DNA from: a virus
Length of the DNA: 64,000 nt
Reading direction: 5' to 3' (one strand)
Virus record (IMG/VR): IMGVR_UViG_3300027896_000024
Span: 1-64,000 of that record
Part shown: positions 19,640 through 30,477 of the stretch, piece by piece
How the letters are laid out: the number at the start of each line of letters is the position of its first letter
Numbering within the stretch: the first letter of the stretch is position 1
The notes under the pieces: model-generated
Told to the model about the DNA's origin: nothing
The model's database searches: none
What the model saw: only the letters and a program-made list of their open reading frames with translations
Translations under genes and position numbers: made by a program

Positions 19640-19841
19640 TCGTTCCGTTCCGCTGAACGAACTCATGCTCGTATCAGATATTGTGACAGCCACGGGCCGT
19701 TCGCGAGTTGCGGTGTATAACATGATTGAGCGAGGCCGTTTGGTGCCGGCATGGGTATTCGATAACGGGATTATGTTGTTCCTGAAAACGGAACTGGAAA
19801 ACTTTGAATGGCCGAAACCGGGGAGACCAAAAAAATCATGA
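19626..19841 (+). CDS. AlpA/excisionase-like HTH protein
   Basis: SDIVTATGRSRVAVYNMIERGRL HTH; C-terminal PKPGRPKK. Confidence 0.65.
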   Translation: MSQTNRSVPLNELMLVSDIVTATGRSRVAVYNMIERGRLVPAWVFDNGIMLFLKTELENFEWPKPGRPKKS

Positions 19842-20548
19842 TAGCGATGGCGCATCCAGGATTAGAAAGGCAGTTAGGAGTTAATGGGGTAGTTTTGTTC
19901 TCTGGTGGCTTGGACTCGGCAGTAGTCCTGGCCTATGCACAAAGAACGGTAAATAAGGTGACTGCACTGTGCGTGAGTTATGGCCAGTCGTCACCGGAAC
20001 TGAACTTCGCAATTCAGTTTTGCAACAGGCTAGGAATCGATTTTCGGATTGCTGAAATCGGTGGCATGTTTCAGGGTAGAGTAGCTCTGACTCAGGACGC
20101 TGAGCTTCCGACTTCGGATCCGAAATCAGAGGAGCAAAAAGTAACGGTTGTTCCGAATCGAAATGGCGTCCTGTTGATGCTGGGAGTTGCGGAAGCAATT
20201 ATGACCGGAGCATCGAGGGTTTATTCGGGAATCCAATCGGGAGGTAGAATGCTGTATCCAGATAATCGACTAGATTATCTGGAGTGCTTGACTAAGGCGG
20301 CGTTTCTGGCAAACGACGAGTATCCAATCGAACTTAGGCATCCGTTCTGCGGTGCGTGCAAATCAGAAATCGTAAGAGTAGGATCAGTGCTGGGAGTTCC
20401 TTTTGAACTGACTTGTTCTTGCTACCGGCGCTCTGTTGACAATCCGTTTGCATCACAACATTGCGGAGTATGCAAAGCGTGCCAAACAAGGAGAGCGGCA
20501 TTTATTGAGGCGGGCGTTGAGGATCCTACGGAGTACGAAAAGCCGTAA
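19838..20548 (+). CDS. queC: 7-cyano-7-deazaguanine synthase
   Basis: LFSGGLDS, VPNRN, YPD, K..IV, SCY, HCGVCKACQTR. Confidence 0.93.
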   Translation: MIAMAHPGLERQLGVNGVVLFSGGLDSAVVLAYAQRTVNKVTALCVSYGQSSPELNFAIQFCNRLGIDFRIAEIGGMFQGRVALTQDAELPTSDPKSEEQKVTVVPNRNGVLLMLGVAEAIMTGASRVYSGIQSGGRMLYPDNRLDYLECLTKAAFLANDEYPIELRHPFCGACKSEIVRVGSVLGVPFELTCSCYRRSVDNPFASQHCGVCKACQTRRAAFIEAGVEDPTEYEKP

Positions 20549-20578
20549 TTTTAGTAGCTCGAAGTTGCGTGAAGGACG

Positions 20579-20622
20579 GGCGAGCCCTATATTTAGTGCG
20601 TCTAAAGGGCTCGCCATTTTTT
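20579..20622 (+). terminator. Intrinsic terminator insulating the early unit
   Basis: GGCGAGCCCT/AGGGCTCGCC stem then ATTTTTT. Confidence 0.8.
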
Positions 20623-20739
20623 ATGCCCGTGATTATCAACGTAGGCAAATCGATCTAGTAGGCCAAAAGGCCCCGAAATTATTTTTAGTCCGGACGGTAA
20701 AGCACTGGATTTGTAGCCGAATCCGGTTCGAAATAATCG

Positions 20740-20768
20740 TTGACAAGTATCTATATTTATTCCATAAT
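20740..20768 (+). promoter_or_regulatory. Sigma70-type early promoter
   Basis: TTGACA-17 nt-CATAAT. Confidence 0.8.
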
Positions 20769-20774
20769 ATAGGC

Positions 20775-21418
20775 GAGGTTAAGGATATGAGAACGAGAAC
20801 AAGCAAAAGGGAAACAAACCAAAGGCCAGAGGGGACAAGAAACCCGTCCTCGACCGGCGCGGCTTTCCCGGAGGTGGGGTTCTCGTCGAGCTTGAGCAGC
20901 CATCGCACCCTAGTTTTCTAGGCGCAGGTGGCACGGCGATCGATGATCCTAATTCGGGCTTTTGAGACTCCAAGCCGGGGCGACACGGTGAACCCGGAAG
21001 GAACAAATCGGAGAAAGCGGCTAGGTCGGCCTTAAGACTTTCACCTAAAGAAATCAGGCGAGTAGGGGAAAAGAGAGACGGGGAGACCCGGAGCATCGCG
21101 AAATCCTTTTCCAGCAAAAAGCCGGGTGAATAAAGGATCCGAGCAAAGCGAATCTGAGAGACGGCCAAATGACCCAGTGAGGGGAGGTCGTAAACCAGAT
21201 GAGTCGAGCGGAGTTCCTGGAAGGGGTAACGTCCCTAATTAGAGCGTGGGTACCTGAAAAATTCTTTCCCGTTTTGGTGGTCCGGTGGAAGGGATAAAAT
21301 CTAAGGTTAGCTAATTAGCAAAAGCGATAGACTCCGACCGCAAGTGCAGAGTTCCCGGCTATGCGGACGCCAAGCGAAAGCTCGGTAGGTTTTCTCTCAA
21401 ATCTCCTGTCGAGTTTTA
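20775..21418 (+). ncRNA. Candidate large structured ncRNA (about 650 nt)
   Basis: No convincing ORF over 650 nt in an otherwise dense genome; many hairpins; long-range pairings; bounded by the promoter and ribozyme 1. Confidence 0.5.
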
Positions 21419-21479
21419 GCAGAGGGCAATCAGGTTGTGAGACCTGGTTGTAATGCACGGTTAGGTCCCAAGTCCTAAC
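21419..21479 (+). ncRNA. Twister ribozyme copy 1 (permuted; predicted cut 21451/21452)
   Basis: GCA GAGGG CAATCAGGT-loop-ACCTGGTTG TAA TGC AC; P4 GTTAGG TCCCAAGT CCTAAC. Confidence 0.85.
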
Positions 21480-21498
21480 ATCAAAAGGAGAGAACAAC

Positions 21499-21672
21499 AT
21501 GAAAAACAAAACATGGCCAAACGAAAAAGACGTTTGCTATGATTGCGGAAGCAACATTCCAGGACATCATACTCCGTCATGCGATTTTGCGGAACCTGAT
21601 GACAAGCGCGATTTACCTGAGCAGCCTGGTACTCAATGGTGGACACGTGAAGTACCTGCGGAGTTGAAATAG
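21499..21672 (+). CDS. 57-aa Cys/His protein (absent from the ORF track)
   Basis: AAGGAGAG RBS; MKNKTWPNEKDVCYDCGSNIPGHHTPSC...; TAG overlaps ribozyme 2. Confidence 0.7.
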   Translation: MKNKTWPNEKDVCYDCGSNIPGHHTPSCDFAEPDDKRDLPEQPGTQWWTREVPAELK

Positions 21673-21736
21673 CAGAGGGCCGGCGTAAGCCGGTAATGCA
21701 CTTGCCGGGGGCACCGGCAATCGGTCCCAAGTCCGA
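21672..21736 (+). ncRNA. Twister ribozyme copy 2, with P3 (cut 21694/21695)
   Basis: P1 CCGGC-GTAA-GCCGG; P3 TTGCCGG/CCGGCAA; P4 TCGG TCCCAAGT CCGA. Confidence 0.85.
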
Positions 21737-21782
21737 ACAAGCACAGGGAACAAAACAACACAAAAAGAAAGAGAGAAATCAA

Positions 21783-22157
21783 ATGACGACTTCGAAAAAT
21801 ACGACCACTGCAACCGCAACTGCAACCGCTCCTGAAACCACGGCCCCGGCAGCAGCTCCAAAGGCTCCGACCCAGGCCAAACCGGTCGCCACCAAGAAAG
21901 CGGCCGTCAAGAAGGTCTTTATCTTCGTCGCGGTGGAACCGGACCTGTACCGGCTCACAATCGGATCGAACGCGGACTCGTCCAAGATTCGTAAGCTGCG
22001 TAATCACAACGCCAAGGAGATCAAGCAGGCTGTTGAGAACGCTTCGAACTTCGCGGGCCGGCCGCCCAAGCCGATCACGTTGAAGAAAGCGGATCTGAGC
22101 AAGTTCGGTCCCAAGGCCGCGCCGTTCACGGGTTTGAAGGCTTTCCGGATTGCGTAG
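21783..22157 (+). CDS. Basic Ala/Thr/Lys-rich protein
   Basis: MTTSKNTTTATATATAP...; A-rich leader after ribozyme 2. Confidence 0.65.
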   Translation: MTTSKNTTTATATATAPETTAPAAAPKAPTQAKPVATKKAAVKKVFIFVAVEPDLYRLTIGSNADSSKIRKLRNHNAKEIKQAVENASNFAGRPPKPITLKKADLSKFGPKAAPFTGLKAFRIA

Positions 22158-22162
22158 TTCCT

Positions 22163-22219
22163 GCAGAGGGGGTCGGCTTCGGCCGACCTAATGCACATGC
22201 TGGGTCCCAAGTCCCAGCA
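22163..22219 (+). ncRNA. Twister ribozyme copy 3 (cut 22189/22190)
   Basis: P1 GGTCGGC-TTCG-GCCGACC; P4 TGCTGGG TCCCAAGT CCCAGCA. Confidence 0.87.
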
Positions 22220-22239
22220 CTTCAAAAAGGAGAGACAAC

Positions 22240-22380
22240 ATGAAGAAGTTCTTTATTTGGTTATTTCTGATGTGGGCCGTACTTCACTTCGGAGCCAAGT
22301 GGGGCAAGGAAAACCAGGCGAAGGTGGAACAGCAGATTCACGAGTCAGGAATATTCCAGGTTGCGAATATCAACAAATAG
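22240..22380 (+). CDS. 46-aa membrane/secreted peptide (absent from the ORF track)
   Basis: AAGGAGAG RBS; MKKFFIWLFLMWAVLHFGAKWGKE...; TAG overlaps ribozyme 4. Confidence 0.7.
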   Translation: MKKFFIWLFLMWAVLHFGAKWGKENQAKVEQQIHESGIFQVANINK

Positions 22381-22437
22381 CAGAGGGCCAGGGTTCACGT
22401 CCCTGGTAATGCGGTAGGTCGGTCCCAAGCCCCGACC
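22380..22437 (+). ncRNA. Twister ribozyme copy 4 (cut 22407/22408)
   Basis: P1 CCAGGG/CCCTGG; P4 GGTCGG TCCCAAGCC CCGACC; T2 GGU/GCC. Confidence 0.82.
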
Positions 22438-22518
22438 ACAACGAATCATTCATTCCACAACACAACAAAACGGCCCAGGGCAAGGTAGGGCTGGAAAACC
22501 ACAAAAGGAGAGACAACA

Positions 22519-22983
22519 ATGACCGAGATCAAAACAAACAAAGGCACGTTTGAACTACCGGCCGGTGTTACCTTATCGGATTTAAAATATCCGTCTTGGA
22601 AAAGTTCCAAGCGGTTTGATTATTCCGAGGTTACCAAGCTGGGCCTGGATCATTCGGATTTGGAGTTAGATTTCTGGTACGTAAATTCAATTGGCTGGTG
22701 CCTTCCGACTTTACTTATTCACAGGGCCGGACGGAGATCAGCACCGGGAACAACGGACAGAACGTATGCGGTTGGTGTAAACGGAAATCATTACCGCATC
22801 GGCCATGGACCACACGTTCAGGCTGAGGTTAAGGTGTACGTCAACAAGGCAAATTTGGATCGCCTTCGAAAGTACATCGACCTTCGGAAGTCGGGTGCGG
22901 TACACGCCAACGAAACCCGGGATCGCATTTCAACACGGCGTATGAACACTATGAATCGTCGGAGCAGCTTATTTGGATTTTAG
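22519..22983 (+). CDS. Hypothetical early protein
   Basis: AAGGAGAG RBS; 154 aa; between ribozymes 4 and 5. Confidence 0.75.
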   Translation: MTEIKTNKGTFELPAGVTLSDLKYPSWKSSKRFDYSEVTKLGLDHSDLELDFWYVNSIGWCLPTLLIHRAGRRSAPGTTDRTYAVGVNGNHYRIGHGPHVQAEVKVYVNKANLDRLRKYIDLRKSGAVHANETRDRISTRRMNTMNRRSSLFGF

Positions 22984-23048
22984 CAGAGGGGGGCCGAAAG
23001 GCCCTAATGCCCACCGGATATAGGATCCGGTCAGGTCCCAAGGCCTGA
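22983..23048 (+). ncRNA. Twister ribozyme copy 5, with P3 (cut 23005/23006)
   Basis: P1 GGGCC-GAAA-GGCCC; P3 ACCGGAT/ATCCGGT; P4 loop TCCCAAGG with compensatory T2 CC/GG. Confidence 0.87.
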
Positions 23049-23086
23049 GGGTATTACCAAAAAAGAGAGATTAAGGAGACAATACA

Positions 23087-23806
23087 ATGAGCAAAAAGCA
23101 GAATAACGGCACTGATGATGAATCATTGGTATTCGCTGGCAAGGAGCTCACGTTGGAAGATGAGATGAACATTCTCAAGGGCGGGACAGTAGGCCTGGAA
23201 CAGTTCCTCGAAAACTTCCAGTTTCTGATTTTCGTCCTGGACGAGTCGGGTTCGATGCAAGACCGGCTGCCGAGTGGAGATACTCCGAAGCGTGAGGTTC
23301 AGAAGCGGATTATCAAACGGTATGTGGACGAGAAGATCGGACGCAAGGCCGGCACGATGAAGATCGGTGTTGTCAGCTTCGATGATGAAGCGTCCGTTTG
23401 GCTCCAGGGTTCGTCGGATCCGGTTGCAATCAAGGCCGCGGCGGACCAGTGCAGGGGCGGTGGCGGTACGCACCTCGGGCGCGGAATTCTCAAGGGTCTT
23501 TCATTACTCCACCGGATGAAAGATTATATTCCCCGTCTCGTTCTTACGTCGGATGGTGAGGCACATGATCCGGCTCAGGCAATCGCCGGAGCGGAAGCGG
23601 CCAAGGCCAAGGGCGTCGTAATCGACACGGTGTACATTGGCCCTGGTGGGGGCGGTGACGTATATGCGGATAATGCGGCTGATCTTATGCGGAGAATCGC
23701 TGAGATCACCGGCGGCGTGTTCGAGCGCGTAAACAATCAGTCGGAATTCGAAACCAAGTTTTTCGATGTGATCAAGCGCCCGTTGCTTGCAACCAGTTTG
23801 AAGTAG
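23087..23806 (+). CDS. von Willebrand factor A (VWA) domain protein
   Basis: MIDAS DESGSM, GGGT, LTSDGE, IAEITGG. Confidence 0.88.
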   Translation: MSKKQNNGTDDESLVFAGKELTLEDEMNILKGGTVGLEQFLENFQFLIFVLDESGSMQDRLPSGDTPKREVQKRIIKRYVDEKIGRKAGTMKIGVVSFDDEASVWLQGSSDPVAIKAAADQCRGGGGTHLGRGILKGLSLLHRMKDYIPRLVLTSDGEAHDPAQAIAGAEAAKAKGVVIDTVYIGPGGGGDVYADNAADLMRRIAEITGGVFERVNNQSEFETKFFDVIKRPLLATSLK

Positions 23807-23811
23807 TCCTC

Positions 23812-23864
23812 GCAGAGGGGGGCCGGTAACGGCCCTAATGCACGGGCCGGTCCCAAGTCCGGTC
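23812..23864 (+). ncRNA. Twister ribozyme copy 6 (cut 23836/23837)
   Basis: P1 GGGCCG-GTAA-CGGCCC; P4 GGCCGG TCCCAAGT CCGGTC. Confidence 0.87.
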
Positions 23865-23897
23865 GTCATTACAAACCACAAAAAGGAGAGAACGATC

Positions 23898-24599
23898 ATG
23901 GTATATGCTGATGATTTTCCAGAGCAACAAAAACAACAGGAAGCGCGGAAAGCGGCTATTAGGGCTCACAGGGCCGAGATGGACGCTAAGATCGAACAGT
24001 GCACGTTGGCCTTAGTCGTCGCGTTGGAAAACTATGGCCACAAGGTAGAACGGCATGGGCACAAGCAGGACGACAAAGTGATCCTCGGCGACATCTATCA
24101 TATTGACGGGGTGTACTTTTGGGATCTGCAGTTCTACGAACAAGGGCTTTACGCTCCTGGTGGATATCTCAGGGGTGCCGGAAATGGTAAACTGGCATTG
24201 CATTATCAGGATCCGAATTCAGTGCTTCAAAGGCGCGTTATCATTCGTGAGAAGAAAAGCGGTTTTGATTACAACACAATCGCCGCTACGTTGATAGCCT
24301 TGGCAGCCCCGTTAATACCGGCTGCTAAGGAACGGTTGGAGCGGGAAGCGAAGCAGGCCGAGGCCAACGCCAAAGCGGAACAGATCCGGGACATGGCGAG
24401 CGCTTTACAGCAACAGTTTCGGAGCAAAACGTTGACGAACTTGAGTATTCAATATCAGAACTGGTGCGGCAAATTTGAGGTTTCGTTCAATACGGAGACC
24501 TTGGAAGAGGCGCAAGCAATTCTGAGCCGGTTGGTTCCGAATAAAACGGAATCGCCCGACGACGCAATCGAAGAAGCGAGGCGTAGAATACACGGTTAG
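23898..24599 (+). CDS. Hypothetical early protein
   Basis: AAGGAGAG RBS before ATG 23898. Confidence 0.7.
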   Translation: MVYADDFPEQQKQQEARKAAIRAHRAEMDAKIEQCTLALVVALENYGHKVERHGHKQDDKVILGDIYHIDGVYFWDLQFYEQGLYAPGGYLRGAGNGKLALHYQDPNSVLQRRVIIREKKSGFDYNTIAATLIALAAPLIPAAKERLEREAKQAEANAKAEQIRDMASALQQQFRSKTLTNLSIQYQNWCGKFEVSFNTETLEEAQAILSRLVPNKTESPDDAIEEARRRIHG

Positions 24600-24673
24600 C
24601 AGAGGGGGGCGAGCTAACACAGTCGCCCTAATGCACTAGTACATTCTTTAAGTACTAATGGTCCCAAGTCCAT
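24599..24673 (+). ncRNA. Twister ribozyme copy 7, with P3 (cut 24629/24630)
   Basis: P1 GGGCGA/TCGCCC; P3 TAGTAC/GTACTA; P4 ATGG TCCCAAGT CCAT. Confidence 0.83.
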
Positions 24674-24701
24674 AAACAAAAAAGAGAGAAGAGGAGATAA
24701 C

Positions 24702-25466
24702 ATGAACCCAAGGAAGCTGTTGGCACAGCTCAGGCGGGTGTATTCACAGTTTACCAAAATGGCTAAGCAGCCGATCGAGGACAGGAACAAGTTGCTCGTA
24801 TCTGCGGTGGCCATAATGGATGCTGTAGTGCGCCTGGCAATTGTTCAATACAAATCGCAACTGCCTCAGAACGCGGCCAAGCTTTTCGATATCGCGGGAA
24901 AGTGCAGAGCTAGGGCGATGAGTACAACATTCAACGAAGAGAAGGATTTATCACTTCGGATAGCACTTCTGAAAATGGAACAAATGATTCCCATGTTAAG
25001 CCCGCCGGCGTTTCAGCTCTATATTGACAAGTTCAATCTTAGGGCGTCGGCACATAAAGAGGGCAAGTCGGCCAAAGGTCCCAAAGCACCACGGGCACCA
25101 AGAACACCGGCGAGCGCCCAGCCTCAAAATCAGTATGGTGTACGGCGGAAGTTTTCTCCGGTGCCTCAAATAGTACCGGTTGGTTCGCCGCTGATTATCA
25201 ACATTCTATTTGCTAATCTAAAGACCCCGTTCAGGGCGTCTTCGGCAAAGGCAAAGGCATTTCGTTTCTGGTTCGAGGACTTCCGTACTAAGGAAGAGGT
25301 CGCTCAATACCTGAACCAGGTTACCAACGGGAAGGGCAAATCGCTAGTCTGGTTACTCTGGAACAAGAGGAACGGCGGCGACGAGTCGATGCACTGGTCG
25401 TTTATTCAAAAGGGCAACAAGAGCAAGCTGGTTGTATGCGATCCGACCAAGCTTCCGAAACCATAG
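24702..25466 (+). CDS. Basic protein with a C-terminal domain shared with 34305-35120
   Basis: TPFRASSAKAKAF...GGDESMHW vs TPFRAGSAKEKAF...GGDKSMSW. Confidence 0.7.
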   Translation: MNPRKLLAQLRRVYSQFTKMAKQPIEDRNKLLVSAVAIMDAVVRLAIVQYKSQLPQNAAKLFDIAGKCRARAMSTTFNEEKDLSLRIALLKMEQMIPMLSPPAFQLYIDKFNLRASAHKEGKSAKGPKAPRAPRTPASAQPQNQYGVRRKFSPVPQIVPVGSPLIINILFANLKTPFRASSAKAKAFRFWFEDFRTKEEVAQYLNQVTNGKGKSLVWLLWNKRNGGDESMHWSFIQKGNKSKLVVCDPTKLPKP

Positions 25467-25529
25467 CAGAGGGGCAGCAGGCCTGAGGAACCTGCTGCTA
25501 ATGCACATTCCGGGTCCCAAGTCCCGGAA
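25466..25529 (+). ncRNA. Twister ribozyme copy 8 (cut 25499/25500)
   Basis: P1 GCAGCAGG/CCTGCTGC; P4 TTCCGGG TCCCAAGT CCCGGAA. Confidence 0.87.
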
Positions 25530-25549
25530 CACAAAAAGGAGAGAGCAAC

Positions 25550-25768
25550 ATGGCAGAGATTTTGAAGTGCGAGAAATGCGGCCAAAAGAATAGGGTCGAT
25601 ATATCGCGTTTAGCTCAGTCTATGTGTGCTAAGTGCGGTTGTCCTTTATTTATTCGGCCAGCACCCGGAAGAGATCTTATTGGAGATCTGGCCAACAAGC
25701 TGGAAGCGGCAGCTAAGAATGAGAGGTTCCGTAGAACGCAGGAATACATTTATAGAAGTCGTAACTAA
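25550..25768 (+). CDS. Zinc-ribbon protein resembling the thioredoxin-2 N-terminal finger
   Basis: CEKCGQKNRV...CAKCG. Confidence 0.65.
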   Translation: MAEILKCEKCGQKNRVDISRLAQSMCAKCGCPLFIRPAPGRDLIGDLANKLEAAAKNERFRRTQEYIYRSRN

Positions 25769-25821
25769 GCAGAGGGGGGCCGAAAGGCCCTAATGCACGG
25801 CTTCGGTCCCAAGTCCGAAGC
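25769..25821 (+). ncRNA. Twister ribozyme copy 9 (cut 25791/25792)
   Basis: P1 GGGCC-GAAA-GGCCC; P4 GCTTCGG TCCCAAGT CCGAAGC. Confidence 0.87.
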
Positions 25822-25844
25822 GTCATTACAAAAAGGGAGACAAC

Positions 25845-26318
25845 ATGGAACCAAGACAGTTCGAGGCACAATGCTACAAAACACTGGAAGAGTACGATCG
25901 TACTTATTTCGGCAGCGTAGGCAGCGTGATCGGGATTCGCCTTACTCGGTTTGCTAGAGATTACGAAGCACTCCAGCAGTTCGAGGCAATAACGCGAAAA
26001 CGATTCGGGTTGGTTATGGTGACGCTGGGTATGTACGATTCGGAGTCTCGCCTGGTGTATCTTAATTACCACGTCAGGCACCTGGTAAATAAAGGCTACT
26101 TTACCACGGAGTTGCGGGCGGTCTTATACCATGAGTTGATTCATGCGGTCTTGTGCAATGCGCATCAGCCTATCAGGTTAGGGCTGTACCGCTGTTATTC
26201 ACAAGGCGGCCACGGACCTGCTTTTCAAAAGCTCTGGAACAGTAATAATGAGCTTCGAGAGGTAAACGTGCAGCCGTTATGTTCCGCGGTTTGGGACAGA
26301 ATGGAGAAGCGGCTATGA
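25845..26318 (+). CDS. SprT-like zinc metalloprotease
   Basis: VLYHELIHA and GHGPAF motifs. Confidence 0.8.
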   Translation: MEPRQFEAQCYKTLEEYDRTYFGSVGSVIGIRLTRFARDYEALQQFEAITRKRFGLVMVTLGMYDSESRLVYLNYHVRHLVNKGYFTTELRAVLYHELIHAVLCNAHQPIRLGLYRCYSQGGHGPAFQKLWNSNNELREVNVQPLCSAVWDRMEKRL

Positions 26319-26896
26319 ACATCCAGGCGTTTTTCGATCAGCTTAAACTCGAACTCTCATTACTTAAACACACGGTGGATGATGAGTTCGAGATGTTTGA
26401 TAATAGGCCGCTTCGGTTAACGGTCGCAGGTTCCTTGGGATCAGATTCCCAGGCAATCGCATTCGGTTTCTACGGAGATCGAAAAGTGCTTCGGGGTGCT
26501 ATGAGCCCCGAGGCTATTGCTTCCGCGATCCATATGTATCTGCAAACCAGGAACGTAGGTACCGGGGCAAAACCACAACCGAACAGAGACATTCTCAATA
26601 CCAAACGGCCGTACGATCAGTACAAACAGTCACAGCAACAAAGACCTCATACAAAACCGATCAAGCCTCAGGAACCTAAACGTCGAGTTTGGGCAATGGG
26701 GCCGTCACAGTTTCAGGGTACACCGCTAGACCAGTTAAGGTTGGCGGACTTCGATGGTAAGGTTCAAACAGTCACAGTCAAGGGTGAGATCAAGACGGCA
26801 TCAGACCTGGTGTTGGCGGACTTGCCCGAAAAACAACAGCTTATGCTCAAGATACTTGAGCGGGCACTCAATAGGTTGAACAAACAGTTATCCTAA
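26315..26896 (+). CDS. Hypothetical protein
   Basis: ATGA overlap with the SprT-like gene. Confidence 0.65.
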   Translation: MNIQAFFDQLKLELSLLKHTVDDEFEMFDNRPLRLTVAGSLGSDSQAIAFGFYGDRKVLRGAMSPEAIASAIHMYLQTRNVGTGAKPQPNRDILNTKRPYDQYKQSQQQRPHTKPIKPQEPKRRVWAMGPSQFQGTPLDQLRLADFDGKVQTVTVKGEIKTASDLVLADLPEKQQLMLKILERALNRLNKQLS

Positions 26897-26911
26897 AAAG
26901 GAGAGAACAAC

Positions 26912-27313
26912 ATGGCTAAGCGAGTTTTGACTTGCGGTAATGAGGATTGCAAGCAAAAGAATAACGTCGATATGGACCGCCTGAAGGCGGCCTACTGCGG
27001 GAAGTGCTCGTTTCCGATGTACATGGCCGTCGAACTCCAAGTTCGTGAGGACGAGGAGGAGGAATCGGTCGATGATCTGATTGACGAAATGGCCGGTGCG
27101 GAAGAGGACGATGAACCGGAAGAGGACGAGGAAGATGATTCGGAAGAGGAAGCCGAGGAAATCTTTCTCTGCCCGCTTTGTGGACAGACTGAGGTACCTG
27201 AGGAAGGGCGGGCCTGCTCCAAGTGCCTAGCCGCTCAGAAAAAAGCGGCCAAGGGCAAGGCAGGGGCGAAAAAACCCGCATCCAAGGGCAAGACCAAACC
27301 GAAAGTAAACTAG
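26912..27313 (+). CDS. Zinc-ribbon protein with acidic linker and basic tail
   Basis: N-terminal finger similar to 25550-25768; second CxxC...CxxC. Confidence 0.7.
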   Translation: MAKRVLTCGNEDCKQKNNVDMDRLKAAYCGKCSFPMYMAVELQVREDEEEESVDDLIDEMAGAEEDDEPEEDEEDDSEEEAEEIFLCPLCGQTEVPEEGRACSKCLAAQKKAAKGKAGAKKPASKGKTKPKVN

Positions 27314-27373
27314 CAGAGGGGACCGGGCCAGCACGGCCGGTCTAATGCGCAGTCCCGGTCCCAAGTCCGGGGC
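27313..27373 (+). ncRNA. Twister ribozyme copy 10 (cut 27343/27344)
   Basis: P1 GACCGG/CCGGTC; P4 GTCCCGG TCCCAAGT CCGGGGC; T2 GC/GU. Confidence 0.85.
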
Positions 27374-27420
27374 GCATTGTTAGTACTAACATTCATTCTC
27401 ACAAAAGGGAGAAAACGAAC

Positions 27421-27609
27421 ATGGCAATCAGTGCTGAAATCAAGGGCAAGAATTTGGTAGTGACGATTCCGGTTAACGATCCGCCTGAGCCTTCCGGTTC
27501 CGGCAAGTCGTTGGTGGTTGCGTCTTCGCACGGCAATCAGGAGACGACCTGCAAGGTGAACGGGAAGAACCTGGTGATCGGCCTGAACGCTTACATCCGC
27601 AACAAGTAG
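27421..27609 (+). CDS. Conserved small protein (SGSGKSLVVASSHGN family)
   Basis: 62 aa; S.SGKS.VVAS..GN...LN.Y pattern. Confidence 0.7.
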   Translation: MAISAEIKGKNLVVTIPVNDPPEPSGSGKSLVVASSHGNQETTCKVNGKNLVIGLNAYIRNK

Positions 27610-27668
27610 GCAGAGGGGGGCGGGCTAGTATAGCCGCCCTAATGCACAAGCCGGTCCCAAGTTCGGCT
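27610..27668 (+). ncRNA. Twister ribozyme copy 11 (cut 27640/27641)
   Basis: P1 GGGCGG..CTA/TAGCCGCCC; P4 AGCCGG TCCCAAGT TCGGCT. Confidence 0.85.
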
Positions 27669-27688
27669 ATTCAAAAAGGAGAGAACCT

Positions 27689-27955
27689 ATGGTACACGTT
27701 CCAAGGCAGTTGACTACGGAAGAGGCTATCATCGAGGCGTACGAGCTTACCTGGGATCAAATAGCCCCAGATATTCTAGGTCGCGATGAGACCGCCAGCG
27801 TCGATCGGGACACCGTCATGGATTGCTGCGCGGATCACGTTCGTATTCACGGCGCTATGTCCAAGGAAGTAGAGGCAGCGTACAAGCTGCTATCCTGGGA
27901 AGAAAAGAAGCGGTTGCTCAGGAAGGCGTTCCCGCACAAGACGTACGGATACTAG
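27689..27955 (+). CDS. Hypothetical early protein
   Basis: AAGGAGAG RBS. Confidence 0.7.
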   Translation: MVHVPRQLTTEEAIIEAYELTWDQIAPDILGRDETASVDRDTVMDCCADHVRIHGAMSKEVEAAYKLLSWEEKKRLLRKAFPHKTYGY

Positions 27956-27965
27956 GGAGGTTTAT

Positions 27966-28166
27966 ATGGCAGAGATCTCCAGATGGGCAAACACTCAAGC
28001 TACCGCAGAGGTTGCTTGTCCCCGTTGTGGTATGCAGGCCGGTGTTGAGTGCAGAACTCCAAAGATGCGTAGGTTATTCACAATTCACACCGAACGAGGG
28101 AATGCCTATTTTGCCAAGATAGGTCGTGACGAATGGCTTCGTAGGTACTCAATATCAAAACACTAG
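27966..28166 (+). CDS. Phage zinc-finger protein
   Basis: CPRCGMQAGVEC...HTER. Confidence 0.7.
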   Translation: MAEISRWANTQATAEVACPRCGMQAGVECRTPKMRRLFTIHTERGNAYFAKIGRDEWLRRYSISKH

Positions 28167-28220
28167 CAGAGGGCGGCCGGCAACGGCCGTAATGCACAGC
28201 TCGGGTCCCAAGTCCTGAGT
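28166..28220 (+). ncRNA. Twister ribozyme copy 12 (cut 28190/28191)
   Basis: P1 CGGCCG-GCAA-CGGCCG; P4 GCTCGGG TCCCAAGT CCTGAGT. Confidence 0.87.
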
Positions 28221-28240
28221 ATAAAAAAGGAGAGAACAAC

Positions 28241-28684
28241 ATGGATACAATCATCGAAGATAAACATTCGTTGGCACATCTTGAACAGGTCGTGCGTAAA
28301 TTGTTCGAGAGGTTGGATGTTTCCGAACTTCGTCGTGGTCCGCATCCGATACCAACAGGGATAGGCGAAATCAAGATTGACGATGAAACGCTGGACGTAT
28401 TCGGCGGCCTGTGGGCGGTTGCGTGCGAGATCACAGTAACCCGAAAGTATTTGGGTGGCCGGGGCCGCAAAGCAAAAGTTCCTGGATTTGTGGTCGGCGT
28501 CGTAGTACATCATCATAATTATCCGCATGAACCGGATGATTACGAACCTGTTGAAACGGGCCAGTTCGAGTCACCTTACAAAGCCGCAGAGGCTCTGGCA
28601 TTGTTGTATTACCAAGACCGTATCAATAGTGCGATGGAGGACATCAGCATGGCAGAGGTTGCGGAGCAGTTCCACGAAGATTAG
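28241..28684 (+). CDS. Hypothetical early protein
   Basis: AAGGAGAG RBS, 147 aa. Confidence 0.7.
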   Translation: MDTIIEDKHSLAHLEQVVRKLFERLDVSELRRGPHPIPTGIGEIKIDDETLDVFGGLWAVACEITVTRKYLGGRGRKAKVPGFVVGVVVHHHNYPHEPDDYEPVETGQFESPYKAAEALALLYYQDRINSAMEDISMAEVAEQFHED

Positions 28685-28734
28685 CAGAGGGGGGCCGCAA
28701 GGCCCTAATGCACGAGCTGGTCCCAAGTCCAGCT
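28684..28734 (+). ncRNA. Twister ribozyme copy 13 (cut 28706/28707)
   Basis: P1 GGGCC-GCAA-GGCCC; P4 AGCTGG TCCCAAGT CCAGCT. Confidence 0.87.
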
Positions 28735-28763
28735 AGGCAGATCACAAAAAGGAGAGAACAACG

Positions 28764-29300
28764 ATGGCTGATAAAGAGGTAGAGGCGACATATACCGAGG
28801 AGCCGTCTAAGTATCCTGTATTCGTGCAGGAGCTTATGGATCGCTTCAAGGCCGTTGAGCGCAAGCTAACGGAAAACAAGTATCAAATGGACGCAGAGTT
28901 AAAGCGTACCCAGGAGCGCCTGGAGGCCAGTTATACCAAGCAGCGGGATTTGGACGGGCAGAAGTTAATCGTTCATTTCCTGGAAGTGTTGGATAATCTG
29001 GATTGGGCATTATCACATGCTACTGAATCGGCCGACAGCTTTCATTCGGGTGTACGTCTAGTGGCGGATCTGTTTCGGAAGAAACTCCAGCAACTAGGCG
29101 TAGTACTCGTACCGTTGAAGGACAAGCCTTACGATCCGGAATTCGCGCAAGCTATCTTTGCACAAGAGGTAGATAAGCCCGAGTTACACGGCATCGTGCT
29201 TCAAGAACACGTCACTTGCTACGCGATTGATGCGACTATCATCCGTCCTGGTCAAGTGGTCGTAGGCAAGAAGCGGGAGGTGTCTAATGGTAGCGGTTAA
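28764..29300 (+). CDS. grpE: GrpE-like nucleotide exchange factor
   Basis: N-terminal coiled coil, LEVLDNLDWAL, GVRLV, YDPEFAQAI, Y...IIRPGQVVV. Confidence 0.8.
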   Translation: MADKEVEATYTEEPSKYPVFVQELMDRFKAVERKLTENKYQMDAELKRTQERLEASYTKQRDLDGQKLIVHFLEVLDNLDWALSHATESADSFHSGVRLVADLFRKKLQQLGVVLVPLKDKPYDPEFAQAIFAQEVDKPELHGIVLQEHVTCYAIDATIIRPGQVVVGKKREVSNGSG

Positions 29301-29538
29301 GTGCTGTAAGTGTTTTCGGAATACCAACAAGTTCCGGTGTTGTTCCTGCGGTCACAGTATTTGTACTTCATGTAAAGAGCAGACTCGAAAATTACCGGTT
29401 CGCAAGTTGGTGAGTGACGAGGACTTGTTATTCCTGTTGGAAGTATTTGAACGGTCTGGCCAGTCATTATCCTATCGGGCCAAGGTGTACCGAGTAGAGG
29501 CTATGCATCGCGGTCTTATCAAGAAGGAGGCCAAGTGA
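29287..29538 (+). CDS. Cys-rich zinc-finger protein
   Basis: CCKC...CCSCGHSICTSC. Confidence 0.6.
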   Translation: MVAVKCCKCFRNTNKFRCCSCGHSICTSCKEQTRKLPVRKLVSDEDLLFLLEVFERSGQSLSYRAKVYRVEAMHRGLIKKEAK

Positions 29539-29738
29539 AAAGGAAGAGGTTGATGGTCGTTGTACAACCGGTAACAAATCTCCCGGGCTTGTATACCTGG
29601 TCAATACAACGGGCTGGCCGGGTGATTGCGATATACCCGGAGACGTACAAAACAAAGGACTCGGCTATTCGTTATGCTGAGCCCTTTGCTCAGGAAATCG
29701 GAGCAACATTCGCTACCGAAAAGGAGGTACAGGGTTAG
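29535..29738 (+). CDS. Small protein, YegP/DUF1508-like pattern
   Basis: YTWSI...GRVIA..PETYKTKDSAIR. Confidence 0.5.
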   Translation: MKRKRLMVVVQPVTNLPGLYTWSIQRAGRVIAIYPETYKTKDSAIRYAEPFAQEIGATFATEKEVQG

Positions 29739-29796
29739 CAGAGGGGACCGGTCTGAGGGCCGGTCTAATGCGCATGGTCGGTCCCAAGTCCGACCA
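29738..29796 (+). ncRNA. Twister ribozyme copy 14 (cut 29766/29767)
   Basis: P1 GACCGGTC-TGAG-GGCCGGTC; P4 TGGTCGG TCCCAAGT CCGACCA. Confidence 0.87.
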
Positions 29797-29808
29797 AGGG
29801 AGGCACCT

Positions 29809-30477
29809 ATGAGGCGTATTTCTCGTGAGGGGTGGCGCCGGCGTAAGATCGCTGAGTACTACCAACGGCGGGACGATGAACGAATACAAAAAAGGGAGGA
29901 CAACATGATTACACCAGAATATGTTGAATGGGAAAAGGCTCAGGAGCGGGCAGCTTTTGAGTCTAAGATGCGCAGGGACGAGGCTTTGGAAAAGCAGTCC
30001 CAAGTGCAGCAGAGGAAGACAATGGCGGATACGAGCAATCAGGATTCAGCCGTGCCGGCACAGCTCAAGGACTTGATGTTGATATTCGCTGGTAATGCAT
30101 ATTTCACAATTCGAAACAACACAACAGGCAATCGCTTCACGTTTCGCGTATCGGTTTCAAAACCGAATCCACAATTTCCGAACCCGGTTCACTTCGTTAG
30201 TGTACTCTGCGGGCCGGATAACCGTACGAACTATGCGTATATCGGGTTCGTCAGCAAAGCACTTCAATATCGGCACGCAGTCAAGTCAATCATCACGGAA
30301 CAAGCGGTATCTGTTCAAGCTTTCAAATGGTTACTGGCTAGGGTAGCTACTAAGCAGCCCTTGCCTCCCGAAGTGCAGATCTGGCACGAGGGTCGGTGTT
30401 GCCGATGTGGCCGAATGCTAACAGTTCCTGAGTCCATTGAGCACGGCCTAGGGCCGGAATGCTACGGGAGGATATGA
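29809..30477 (+). CDS. DUF6011-like protein (alternative start 29905)
   Basis: C-terminal GRCCRCGRMLTVPESIEHGLGPEC. Confidence 0.75.
   Translation: MRRISREGWRRRKIAEYYQRRDDERIQKREDNMITPEYVEWEKAQERAAFESKMRRDEALEKQSQVQQRKTMADTSNQDSAVPAQLKDLMLIFAGNAYFTIRNNTTGNRFTFRVSVSKPNPQFPNPVHFVSVLCGPDNRTNYAYIGFVSKALQYRHAVKSIITEQAVSVQAFKWLLARVATKQPLPPEVQIWHEGRCCRCGRMLTVPESIEHGLGPECYGRI

Follow-up and report, generated by a model that had tools for sequence, protein, structure and literature searches.

The DNA considered here, referred to below as the window, comprises the first 64 kb (64,000 nucleotides, nt) of the 82.9-kb IMG/VR virus record IMGVR_UViG_3300027896_000024, and it carries an operon of small genes interspersed with self-cleaving twister ribozymes of type P5. 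At the head of this operon lies a long stretch devoid of genes, which on balance we regard as probably a modular, mostly unstructured and untranslated 5' leader that is severed from the message by the first twister and that holds one conserved hairpin of probable regulatory use. This reading draws on the gap itself, a promoter match, a twister match, the absence of coding and folding signals, the pattern of conservation and one compensatory base pair, from which all functional roles of the leader are inferred. Transcription would begin near position 20775 at the best sigma70-type promoter of the window and proceed through 643 nt without a gene. Cleavage by the first twister between U21451 and A21452 would then yield an RNA of about 677 nt bearing a 5' triphosphate at one end and a 2',3'-cyclic phosphate at the other, and the message of the first cistron would keep a short leader that begins with a 5'-OH. 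The leader would be built of modules, namely a conserved, purine-rich and unstructured core extending to about +70, a middle portion that differs, at least in part, in a relative from peat, and a conserved 3' block whose 13-base-pair (bp) hairpin would display a CU-rich loop directly before the ribozyme. The two conserved ends most likely carry the regulation: the hairpin may mask or compete for the uniform ribosome-binding site (RBS) of the operon (GGAGAGAA), or it may act as a weak pause site or terminator, and the ribozyme would uncouple the leader from the coding RNA.

The boundaries of this leader are set by two sequence matches (Table 1). The promoter has no equal in the window, where every other sigma70-type match on the plus strand scores 10/12 or lower, and it predicts a transcription start at about 20775. 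Behind it, positions 20922-21498 form the longest plus-strand gap in the window without an open reading frame (ORF) of at least 40 amino acids (aa), measuring 577 nt against 253 nt for the runner-up. A preliminary description, made from the letters alone, had pointed to this stretch as the largest ORF-poor region, lying directly behind the best sigma70 promoter, and both observations stand. Tandem promoters of the kind found in phage T7 were considered as a reason for the length of the leader and set aside, as only one promoter is detectable. A 6-bp palindrome that overlaps this promoter resembles an operator. At the other end, the match to the twister covariance model is full-length and well above the gathering score; the core pattern is also recovered by regular expression at 21419-21472, with the conserved elements GCAGAGGG, TAATGC (at 21451-21456) and TCCCAAG in that order. 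We take the family consensus to place the cut of this ribozyme within the TAATGC element, after its first base. A cut at this position would free the 5' RNA beginning at about 20775, so that ribozyme 1 would set its 3' end at 21451, as the preliminary description had also proposed.

The stretch is non-coding, as that description likewise held, because its codon usage is negative, its ORFs are absent from a large protein collection and its stop codons are dense. Specifically, by a codon-usage log-likelihood whose training set was 33 long genes of the window, the leader scores below zero in each of the six frames (-0.10 to -0.33), compared with in-frame scores of +0.08 to +0.24 for the neighboring genes; none of nine candidate leader ORFs occurs in a collection of 15 billion proteins; and stops crowd all three forward frames, the longest open stretch being 60 codons. 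It is very unlikely that part of the leader is nonetheless translated, either as a 44-aa peptide (20787-20921) or as a 32-aa peptide (21199-21297). Both candidates have a start codon and a Shine-Dalgarno-like sequence at a workable distance (for the shorter one, GGAGG 11 nt upstream), and the 44-aa frame is the sole ORF near the 5' end with a usable Shine-Dalgarno sequence and falls within the conserved 5' core discussed below. Their codon-usage scores (-0.108 and approximately -0.155, respectively), however, lie some three standard deviations below those of real genes, 44-codon pieces of which score +0.13 ± 0.08, and neither peptide is found in the protein collection. The single difference in the first 20 codons of the 44-aa frame is, moreover, non-synonymous, and nucleotide conservation of the 5' core far exceeds that of the neighboring coding gene, which is not a pattern of coding constraint. 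The 44-aa ORF is probably not a gene. Two further candidates were rejected: an antisense ORF of 129 aa (20779-21168) lacks a Shine-Dalgarno sequence and scores 0.076, within the range of 52 other spurious antisense ORFs, and a pseudogene is not apparent, there being no long open frame in the leader.

The preliminary description went on to interpret the leader as a large structured RNA, similar to the GOLLD or ROOL RNAs of phages or representing a new class. A scan of positions 20500-21600 with all 4227 Rfam families (cmscan, E<=10) returned only twister-P5 and a chance match to STnc380, and a scan of the whole window at the gathering threshold returned only twisters; the covariance models of GOLLD (RF01998) and ROOL (RF03087) each gave no match in the leader at E<=10. 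Nor does the leader fold better than expected. The minimum free energy (MFE) of the 646-nt leader is -212.5 kcal/mol, against -212.7 ± 7.3 kcal/mol in dinucleotide shuffles (z 0.03), and the opposite strand has a z of -0.32. Among 80-nt windows, most have a z of 0 or above, with values below -2 only at 20880, at 21120 and over the 3' hairpin and twister. Watson-Crick complementary words of 5 to 8 nt are at shuffle level, with 61 complementary 6-mer pairs versus 58 ± 10 and 14 complementary 7-mer pairs versus 15 ± 5 in dinucleotide shuffles. The hairpins and complementary hexamers itemized in the preliminary description are indeed present in the sequence, but they occur at chance level and are what any sequence of such length and composition offers, since the fold energy and the word pairs match the shuffles. 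Two of them, the AGC-GAAA-GCT hairpin and the long-range pairing of GTCGAG, are not favored, because both use bases of the better supported hairpin at 21377-21417.

A new large structured RNA with a function of its own, matured by the ribozyme, is accordingly an account we consider decidedly unlikely. The leader shares with GOLLD and ROOL a size class of about 600-800 nt, a phage origin and the lack of an ORF, its strong promoter and defined 3' end would fit such an RNA, and some local hairpins beat their shuffles (20883-20940, and windows at 21120). It differs from them in having neither excess folding energy nor a conserved multi-helix architecture: the pairing potential is at chance level, and directly upstream of 21334 the peat relative departs from the leader sequence. 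The short contigs available show one compensatory pair, located in a single 13-bp hairpin. Searches of IMG/VR, JGI metagenome, GTDB genome and GenBank phage sequences yielded no homologue. The leader thus does not look like one large conserved fold of the GOLLD/ROOL type and appears mostly unfolded; what the preliminary description observed is confirmed in part, and its interpretation as a large RNA is not supported. Three other functions were also tried and rejected. A sponge for CsrA/RsmA would be expected to show an excess of GGA or ANGGA, and there is none (17 GGA, versus 17.3 ± 3.1 in shuffles and 18.5 ± 4.8 across the window); no boxA-like word that would mark a boxA/nut-type antitermination site occurs in the leader; and only short two-copy repeats are present in place of the iterons of a repeat-based origin.

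How the leader has evolved can be followed in a small set of relatives. Homologues were absent from GenBank phages (blastn), from twister-bearing IMG/VR loci (blastn and nhmmer) and the whole records of ten twister-array phages, and from IMG/VR viral contigs, JGI metagenome contigs and GTDB genome contigs scanned for exact patterns. With the upstream QueC-like protein as an anchor, only relatives at 31-38% identity were recovered, and a second operon protein used in the same way yielded none. The relatives are short, low-depth Logan contigs (150-300 nt, depth 2-5) from four runs (X2-X5) in three studies other than the source sample, and in all four runs positions 20876-21125 of the leader are uncovered. 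One near-identical strain, from a sediment run, spans 21126-21406 with a single difference. Contigs from peat are 84-88% identical to the window over the 3' end of the QueC-like gene. Over the 108 nt of the 5' core, a peat contig differs at one position (20829), and the flanks of the core diverge by 7-15% from the peat relative on both sides. The RNA of this region is predicted to be unstructured (fold z of +0.68 for 20775-20920). It carries a tandem GAGAAC GAGAAC and forms a sharp peak of conservation. At the 3' end, peat contigs X3 and X4 show three differences over 21334-21447/21449 and are unlike the window immediately upstream of 21334, and the freshwater-sediment contig X5 is about 94% identical over 21268-21565. 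As judged from these contigs, the pattern is that the ends of the leader are better kept than the neighboring gene and at least part of its middle is not kept, which points to a modular leader or to phage mosaicism and not to one co-evolving fold.

A peat contig also runs from 21449 straight into 21693, the two sides having 9 letters in common where they meet, such that the first cistron, P0001, and one twister are gone; the join marks a cassette loss by recombination between two ribozymes. P0001 is dispensable in the peat relative. Exchange of this kind raises the alternative that everything beyond the promoter is evolutionary filler, left behind by lost gene-plus-ribozyme cassettes at the start of an array whose cassettes come and go through recombination between twisters. 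Besides the exact deletion between two ribozymes and the replacement of the leader middle in relatives, RBS-like GAGA[AC] words are mildly enriched (n=7; 0.5% of windows reach 7, p ~0.05 versus shuffles), and twister 1 is preceded by TAG, as are the twister copies that follow genes. A profile of 14 units, however, detects no decayed twister or RBS unit in the leader, no long stop-free remnant exists in any frame, and the compensatory change in the 3' hairpin implies selection on at least that part. We therefore hold the filler account to be rather unlikely.

That hairpin is the only structure in the leader with comparative support. It is the local MFE structure, and a UUUU tract closes its 3' arm, leaving a single base before the twister. 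In X3, X4 and X5, representing three runs and two studies, the pair A21387-U21407 is replaced by G-C through the joint changes 21387 A>G and 21407 T>C; these two sides of one pair account for all but one of the three differences seen in the 3' block. The G-C version folds identically (-14.2 kcal/mol), and the single-change G-U intermediate is at -11.3 kcal/mol. An intrinsic terminator or attenuator would have a G+C-rich stem, a short loop and a U-run right behind the stem; here 13 bp lead into UUUU, but the U-run is short, the 15-nt loop exceeds that of a standard terminator, and a consensus terminator scan did not call the hairpin.

The loop of this hairpin is complementary to the RBSs of the operon. 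Across the array (21480-29810) the RBS region of the cistrons is nearly identical, spacer included, and approximates AAAAAGGAGAGAACAAC-ATG, with 9 of the 12 GGAGAGA words in the window located at operon RBS sites. Uniformity of the spacers is in itself unusual. Such uniformity of RBS plus spacer suggests either repeated copying of the joint between ribozyme and RBS or a common trans-acting partner. The word GAGAGAA occurs nine times in the window, eight of them at operon RBSs, and its complement TTCTCTC occurs once on the plus strand, in the hairpin loop. Duplexes of the loop with the 14 RBS regions have a mean energy of -9.55 kcal/mol, compared with -3.55 ± 1.72 kcal/mol for random plus-strand 15-mers, of which 0.5% reach the energy of the loop, and the best RBS-complementary 15-mers of the leader overlap the 5' part of the loop. 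The hairpin may thus keep the first RBS covered until twister cleavage, or else work in trans on the RBS set. In the stronger form of this idea, the freed RNA of about 677 nt would be a trans-acting riboregulator whose CU-rich loop pairs with the near-identical RBSs and tunes or times translation of the cistrons, or masks the first RBS until cleavage. The complementarity of the loop to the RBS set, the uniqueness of TTCTCTC and the conservation of the hairpin with a compensatory change all favor such a regulator, as does, by analogy, a leader family unrelated to this one, present in at least 11 other phages with twister arrays and bearing an invariant 19-nt anti-RBS motif (described below). 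We still judge it unlikely. Each operon transcript would supply one leader, substoichiometric to some 14 targets unless the hairpin also terminates transcription, and the shortness and post hoc nature of the match, together with the part that CU composition alone plays in its score, also tell against it.

Several points weigh against the modular regulatory leader that we favor. The match of the loop to the RBSs comprises 7 contiguous nucleotides and was noticed after the loop had been seen, and 3.8% of composition-matched shuffles of the loop equal its energy with the RBSs. Purine-rich segments farther upstream in the leader (21152-21161, and the 5' end in the MFE fold) also complement the loop, which therefore has more than one candidate partner. 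Recent recombination, a common event in phages, could account for the conserved ends in place of selection, and the comparison as a whole consists of a handful of 150-300-nt contigs and one compensatory event, a very thin sample. An absent thermodynamic signal is also compatible with a large tertiary fold. Finally, the transcription start, the cut and the release of a discrete RNA are predictions.

Leaders of comparable layout are present in other phages. Twister arrays occur in many IMG/VR contigs, and in three of these (G001, G002 and G004) a strong promoter precedes a gene-free stretch of about 470-670 nt. The three leaders have in common an invariant 19-nt motif, ACTCTCTTTCTTTTCTCCT, a scan for which finds 19 loci. 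At least 11 distinct phage contigs form what we term the CU-motif family, with leaders of about 450-650 nt. Members carry a TTGACA promoter (430-530 nt upstream), two conserved blocks, GTTCTTTGACATAGC and GAGCG..AAAAACGATNAGATCAGCG, and a hairpin before AAAAACGATNAGATCAGCG with compensatory changes in 5 of its 6 pairs; the block GTTCTTTGACATAGC presumably resembles boxA. The invariant motif ACUCUCUUUCUUUUCUCCU comes next, followed by terminator-like hairpins that differ in sequence from member to member, and in at least 9 of the 11 contigs twisters lie about 0.3-3.4 kb downstream. The family is absent from Rfam, and an Rfam search of its members returns only twisters. No consensus emerged when RNAalifold was applied to a MAFFT alignment of the 3' module, as the terminator hairpin differs from one member to the next. 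The reverse complement of the 19-nt motif, AGGAG-AAAA-GAAAGAGAGT, equals the RBS-plus-spacer consensus of those operons apart from a small bulge, and the motif is the top antisense-to-RBS site in the entire 90-kb G002 genome and tied for top in G001.

The leader studied here is not a member of this family. An nhmmer search with a 12-row alignment of the family gave no match in the leader and a single, non-significant match in the window (E 8.1, 26826-26873); the blocks GTTCTTTGACATAGC, GAGCG..AAAAACGATNAGATCAGCG and ACTCTCTTTCTTTTCTCCT do not occur in the leader; and pairwise local alignments of the leader with the family score no better than shuffles, apart from 15 bases that its promoter has in common with G004. 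Those 15 identical bases (TTGACAAGTATCTAT) fall between 20740 and 20772 in the window and belong to the promoter of an otherwise unrelated leader in G004 (L127:1774-1802). The two kinds of leader resemble each other in having a strong TTGACA promoter, 450-650 nt free of genes where the operon begins, and, close to the 3' end, an exposed CU-rich element complementing a uniform operon RBS. They differ in that CU-motif leaders end in terminator-like hairpins, with at least one gene before the first twister, whereas the present leader ends directly in a twister. We view the family as an analogue and not a relative, one that makes the anti-RBS idea more credible in general and supplies no evidence for this locus. 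The broadest form of that idea, in which one ribozyme-released RNA, made first, would set the translation of a whole self-processing operon, and another leader family would have brought unrelated phages to the same arrangement, we put forward as doubtful.

Among known systems, the early region of phages T7 and T3 offers what is, by analogy, the closest working counterpart. There, transcripts reportedly start at the host-polymerase promoters A1-A3 and are cut at the RNase III site R0.3 before the first gene, the first of several RNase III cuts, by which a leader several hundred nucleotides long is lost. In the same way, as proposed here, a strong host-type promoter would be followed by several hundred untranslated nucleotides and a site-specific cut that removes the leader, and further cuts between cistrons would turn a polycistronic early RNA into single-gene pieces. 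The present locus differs in its use of self-cleaving twisters in place of host RNase III and in having one detectable promoter, and it has no sequence relation to T7 or T3. In RiboJ insulators and in hammerhead or twister expression platforms, a ribozyme removes the promoter-derived 5' RNA and thereby frees the RBS from its upstream context. Such insulators and RBS-release devices resemble the leader in that a nearby hairpin controls, or here may control, access to the RBS; they are engineered constructs, whereas this arrangement is natural and the role of its hairpin putative. Ribozyme expression platforms are treated in a review that also covers the earlier proposal that hammerhead and twister ribozymes process polycistronic bacterial and phage transcripts (PMC6765202). 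The 3' end of the leader would be set by the first ribozyme of just such an array of type-P5 twisters between phage genes (RF02684). In the published proposal, however, the cuts fall between genes, whereas the first cut here would part a long non-coding RNA from the first gene.

The surrounding genome belongs to an uncultured, deeply branching phage, as identity of its DNA polymerase to those of GenBank or cultured phages does not exceed 27%. All plausible genes of the window are on the plus strand, and PHROG matches include a clamp loader, a QueC-like enzyme, a helicase and the DNA polymerase. Upstream of the leader, a hairpin with a T-run would close the QueC-like gene and isolate the transcription unit of the leader. 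Downstream, type-P5 twisters extend from 21418 to 29793, numbering 12 by Rfam and 14 by the core regular expression, and the small genes between them match no PHROG family. P0001, the first of these, has four cysteines within a C-x2-C-x12-C... arrangement; no relatives were found among 5.8 billion protein clusters, and the protein itself is present in the 15-billion-protein collection. The operon is probably early and transcribed by the host polymerase.

Table 1. Positions of the leader, its parts and its neighbors in the window, and of the CU-motif family members on their own contigs
Feature	Position	Strand	Description
QueC-like gene	19808-20548	+	PHROG match
Terminator-like hairpin and T-run	20579-20624	+	Inverted repeat, arms 20579-20591 and 20603-20615
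Conserved 5' core	20739-20846	+	Promoter and first ~70 nt of leader; A/G-rich, predicted unstructured
Sigma70-type promoter	20740-20768	+	TTGACA-17-CATAAT; 11/12, best plus-strand match of the window
Palindrome CTATAT/ATATAG	20751-20756 / 20767-20772	+	Overlaps promoter spacer and -10 box
Untranslated leader body	20775-21417	+	643 nt, purine-rich (A 0.29, G 0.31, C 0.22, T 0.18)
Candidate 44-aa ORF	20787-20921	+	Arg-rich; ATG, GAGG 8 nt upstream, right at the 5' end of the predicted transcript
Local branched hairpin	20883-20940	+	MFE -24.0 kcal/mol, z -2.7; contains the CCTAG-TTTT-CTAGG and GCCATC/GGTGGC stems
Conserved 3' block	21334-21417	+	Seen in contigs of relatives
13-bp hairpin	21377-21417	+	21377-21389 pairs with 21405-21417; dG -13.7 kcal/mol, z -3.9
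15-nt CU-rich loop	21390-21404	+	UUUUCUCUCAAAUCU
Twister ribozyme 1, type P5	21418-21477	+	RF02684, 45.3 bits (gathering score 37.6)
RBS of P0001	21487-21494	+	GGAGAGAA
First cistron P0001	21499-21672	+	57 aa, Cys-rich, orphan
CU-motif family member L113	1832-2521	+	
CU-motif family member L159	341-1030	-	
CU-motif family member L170	8747-9436	+	
CU-motif family member L061	1404-2093	+	
CU-motif family member L048	6612-7301	+	
CU-motif family member L163	2081-2770	-	
CU-motif family member L164	1241-1930	-	
CU-motif family member L165	571-1260	+	
CU-motif family member L118	3291-3980	+	
CU-motif family member L168	9550-10239	+	
CU-motif family member L169	1336-2025	+	

Little is settled so far about the role of self-cleaving ribozymes in bacteria and phages, and this locus presents a ribozyme array whose first cut would detach a long non-coding RNA from a message, and not one gene from another. 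If neither the CU-rich loop nor its counterpart in other phages pairs with RBSs, the region would be an ordinary long leader, comparable to the one removed from T7 transcripts by RNase III, and no new class of large RNA would be needed to account for it. If, on the other hand, the loop, or the far better supported anti-RBS motif of the other phages, does pair with the RBSs, these arrays would provide a testable link between ribozyme processing and translational control.

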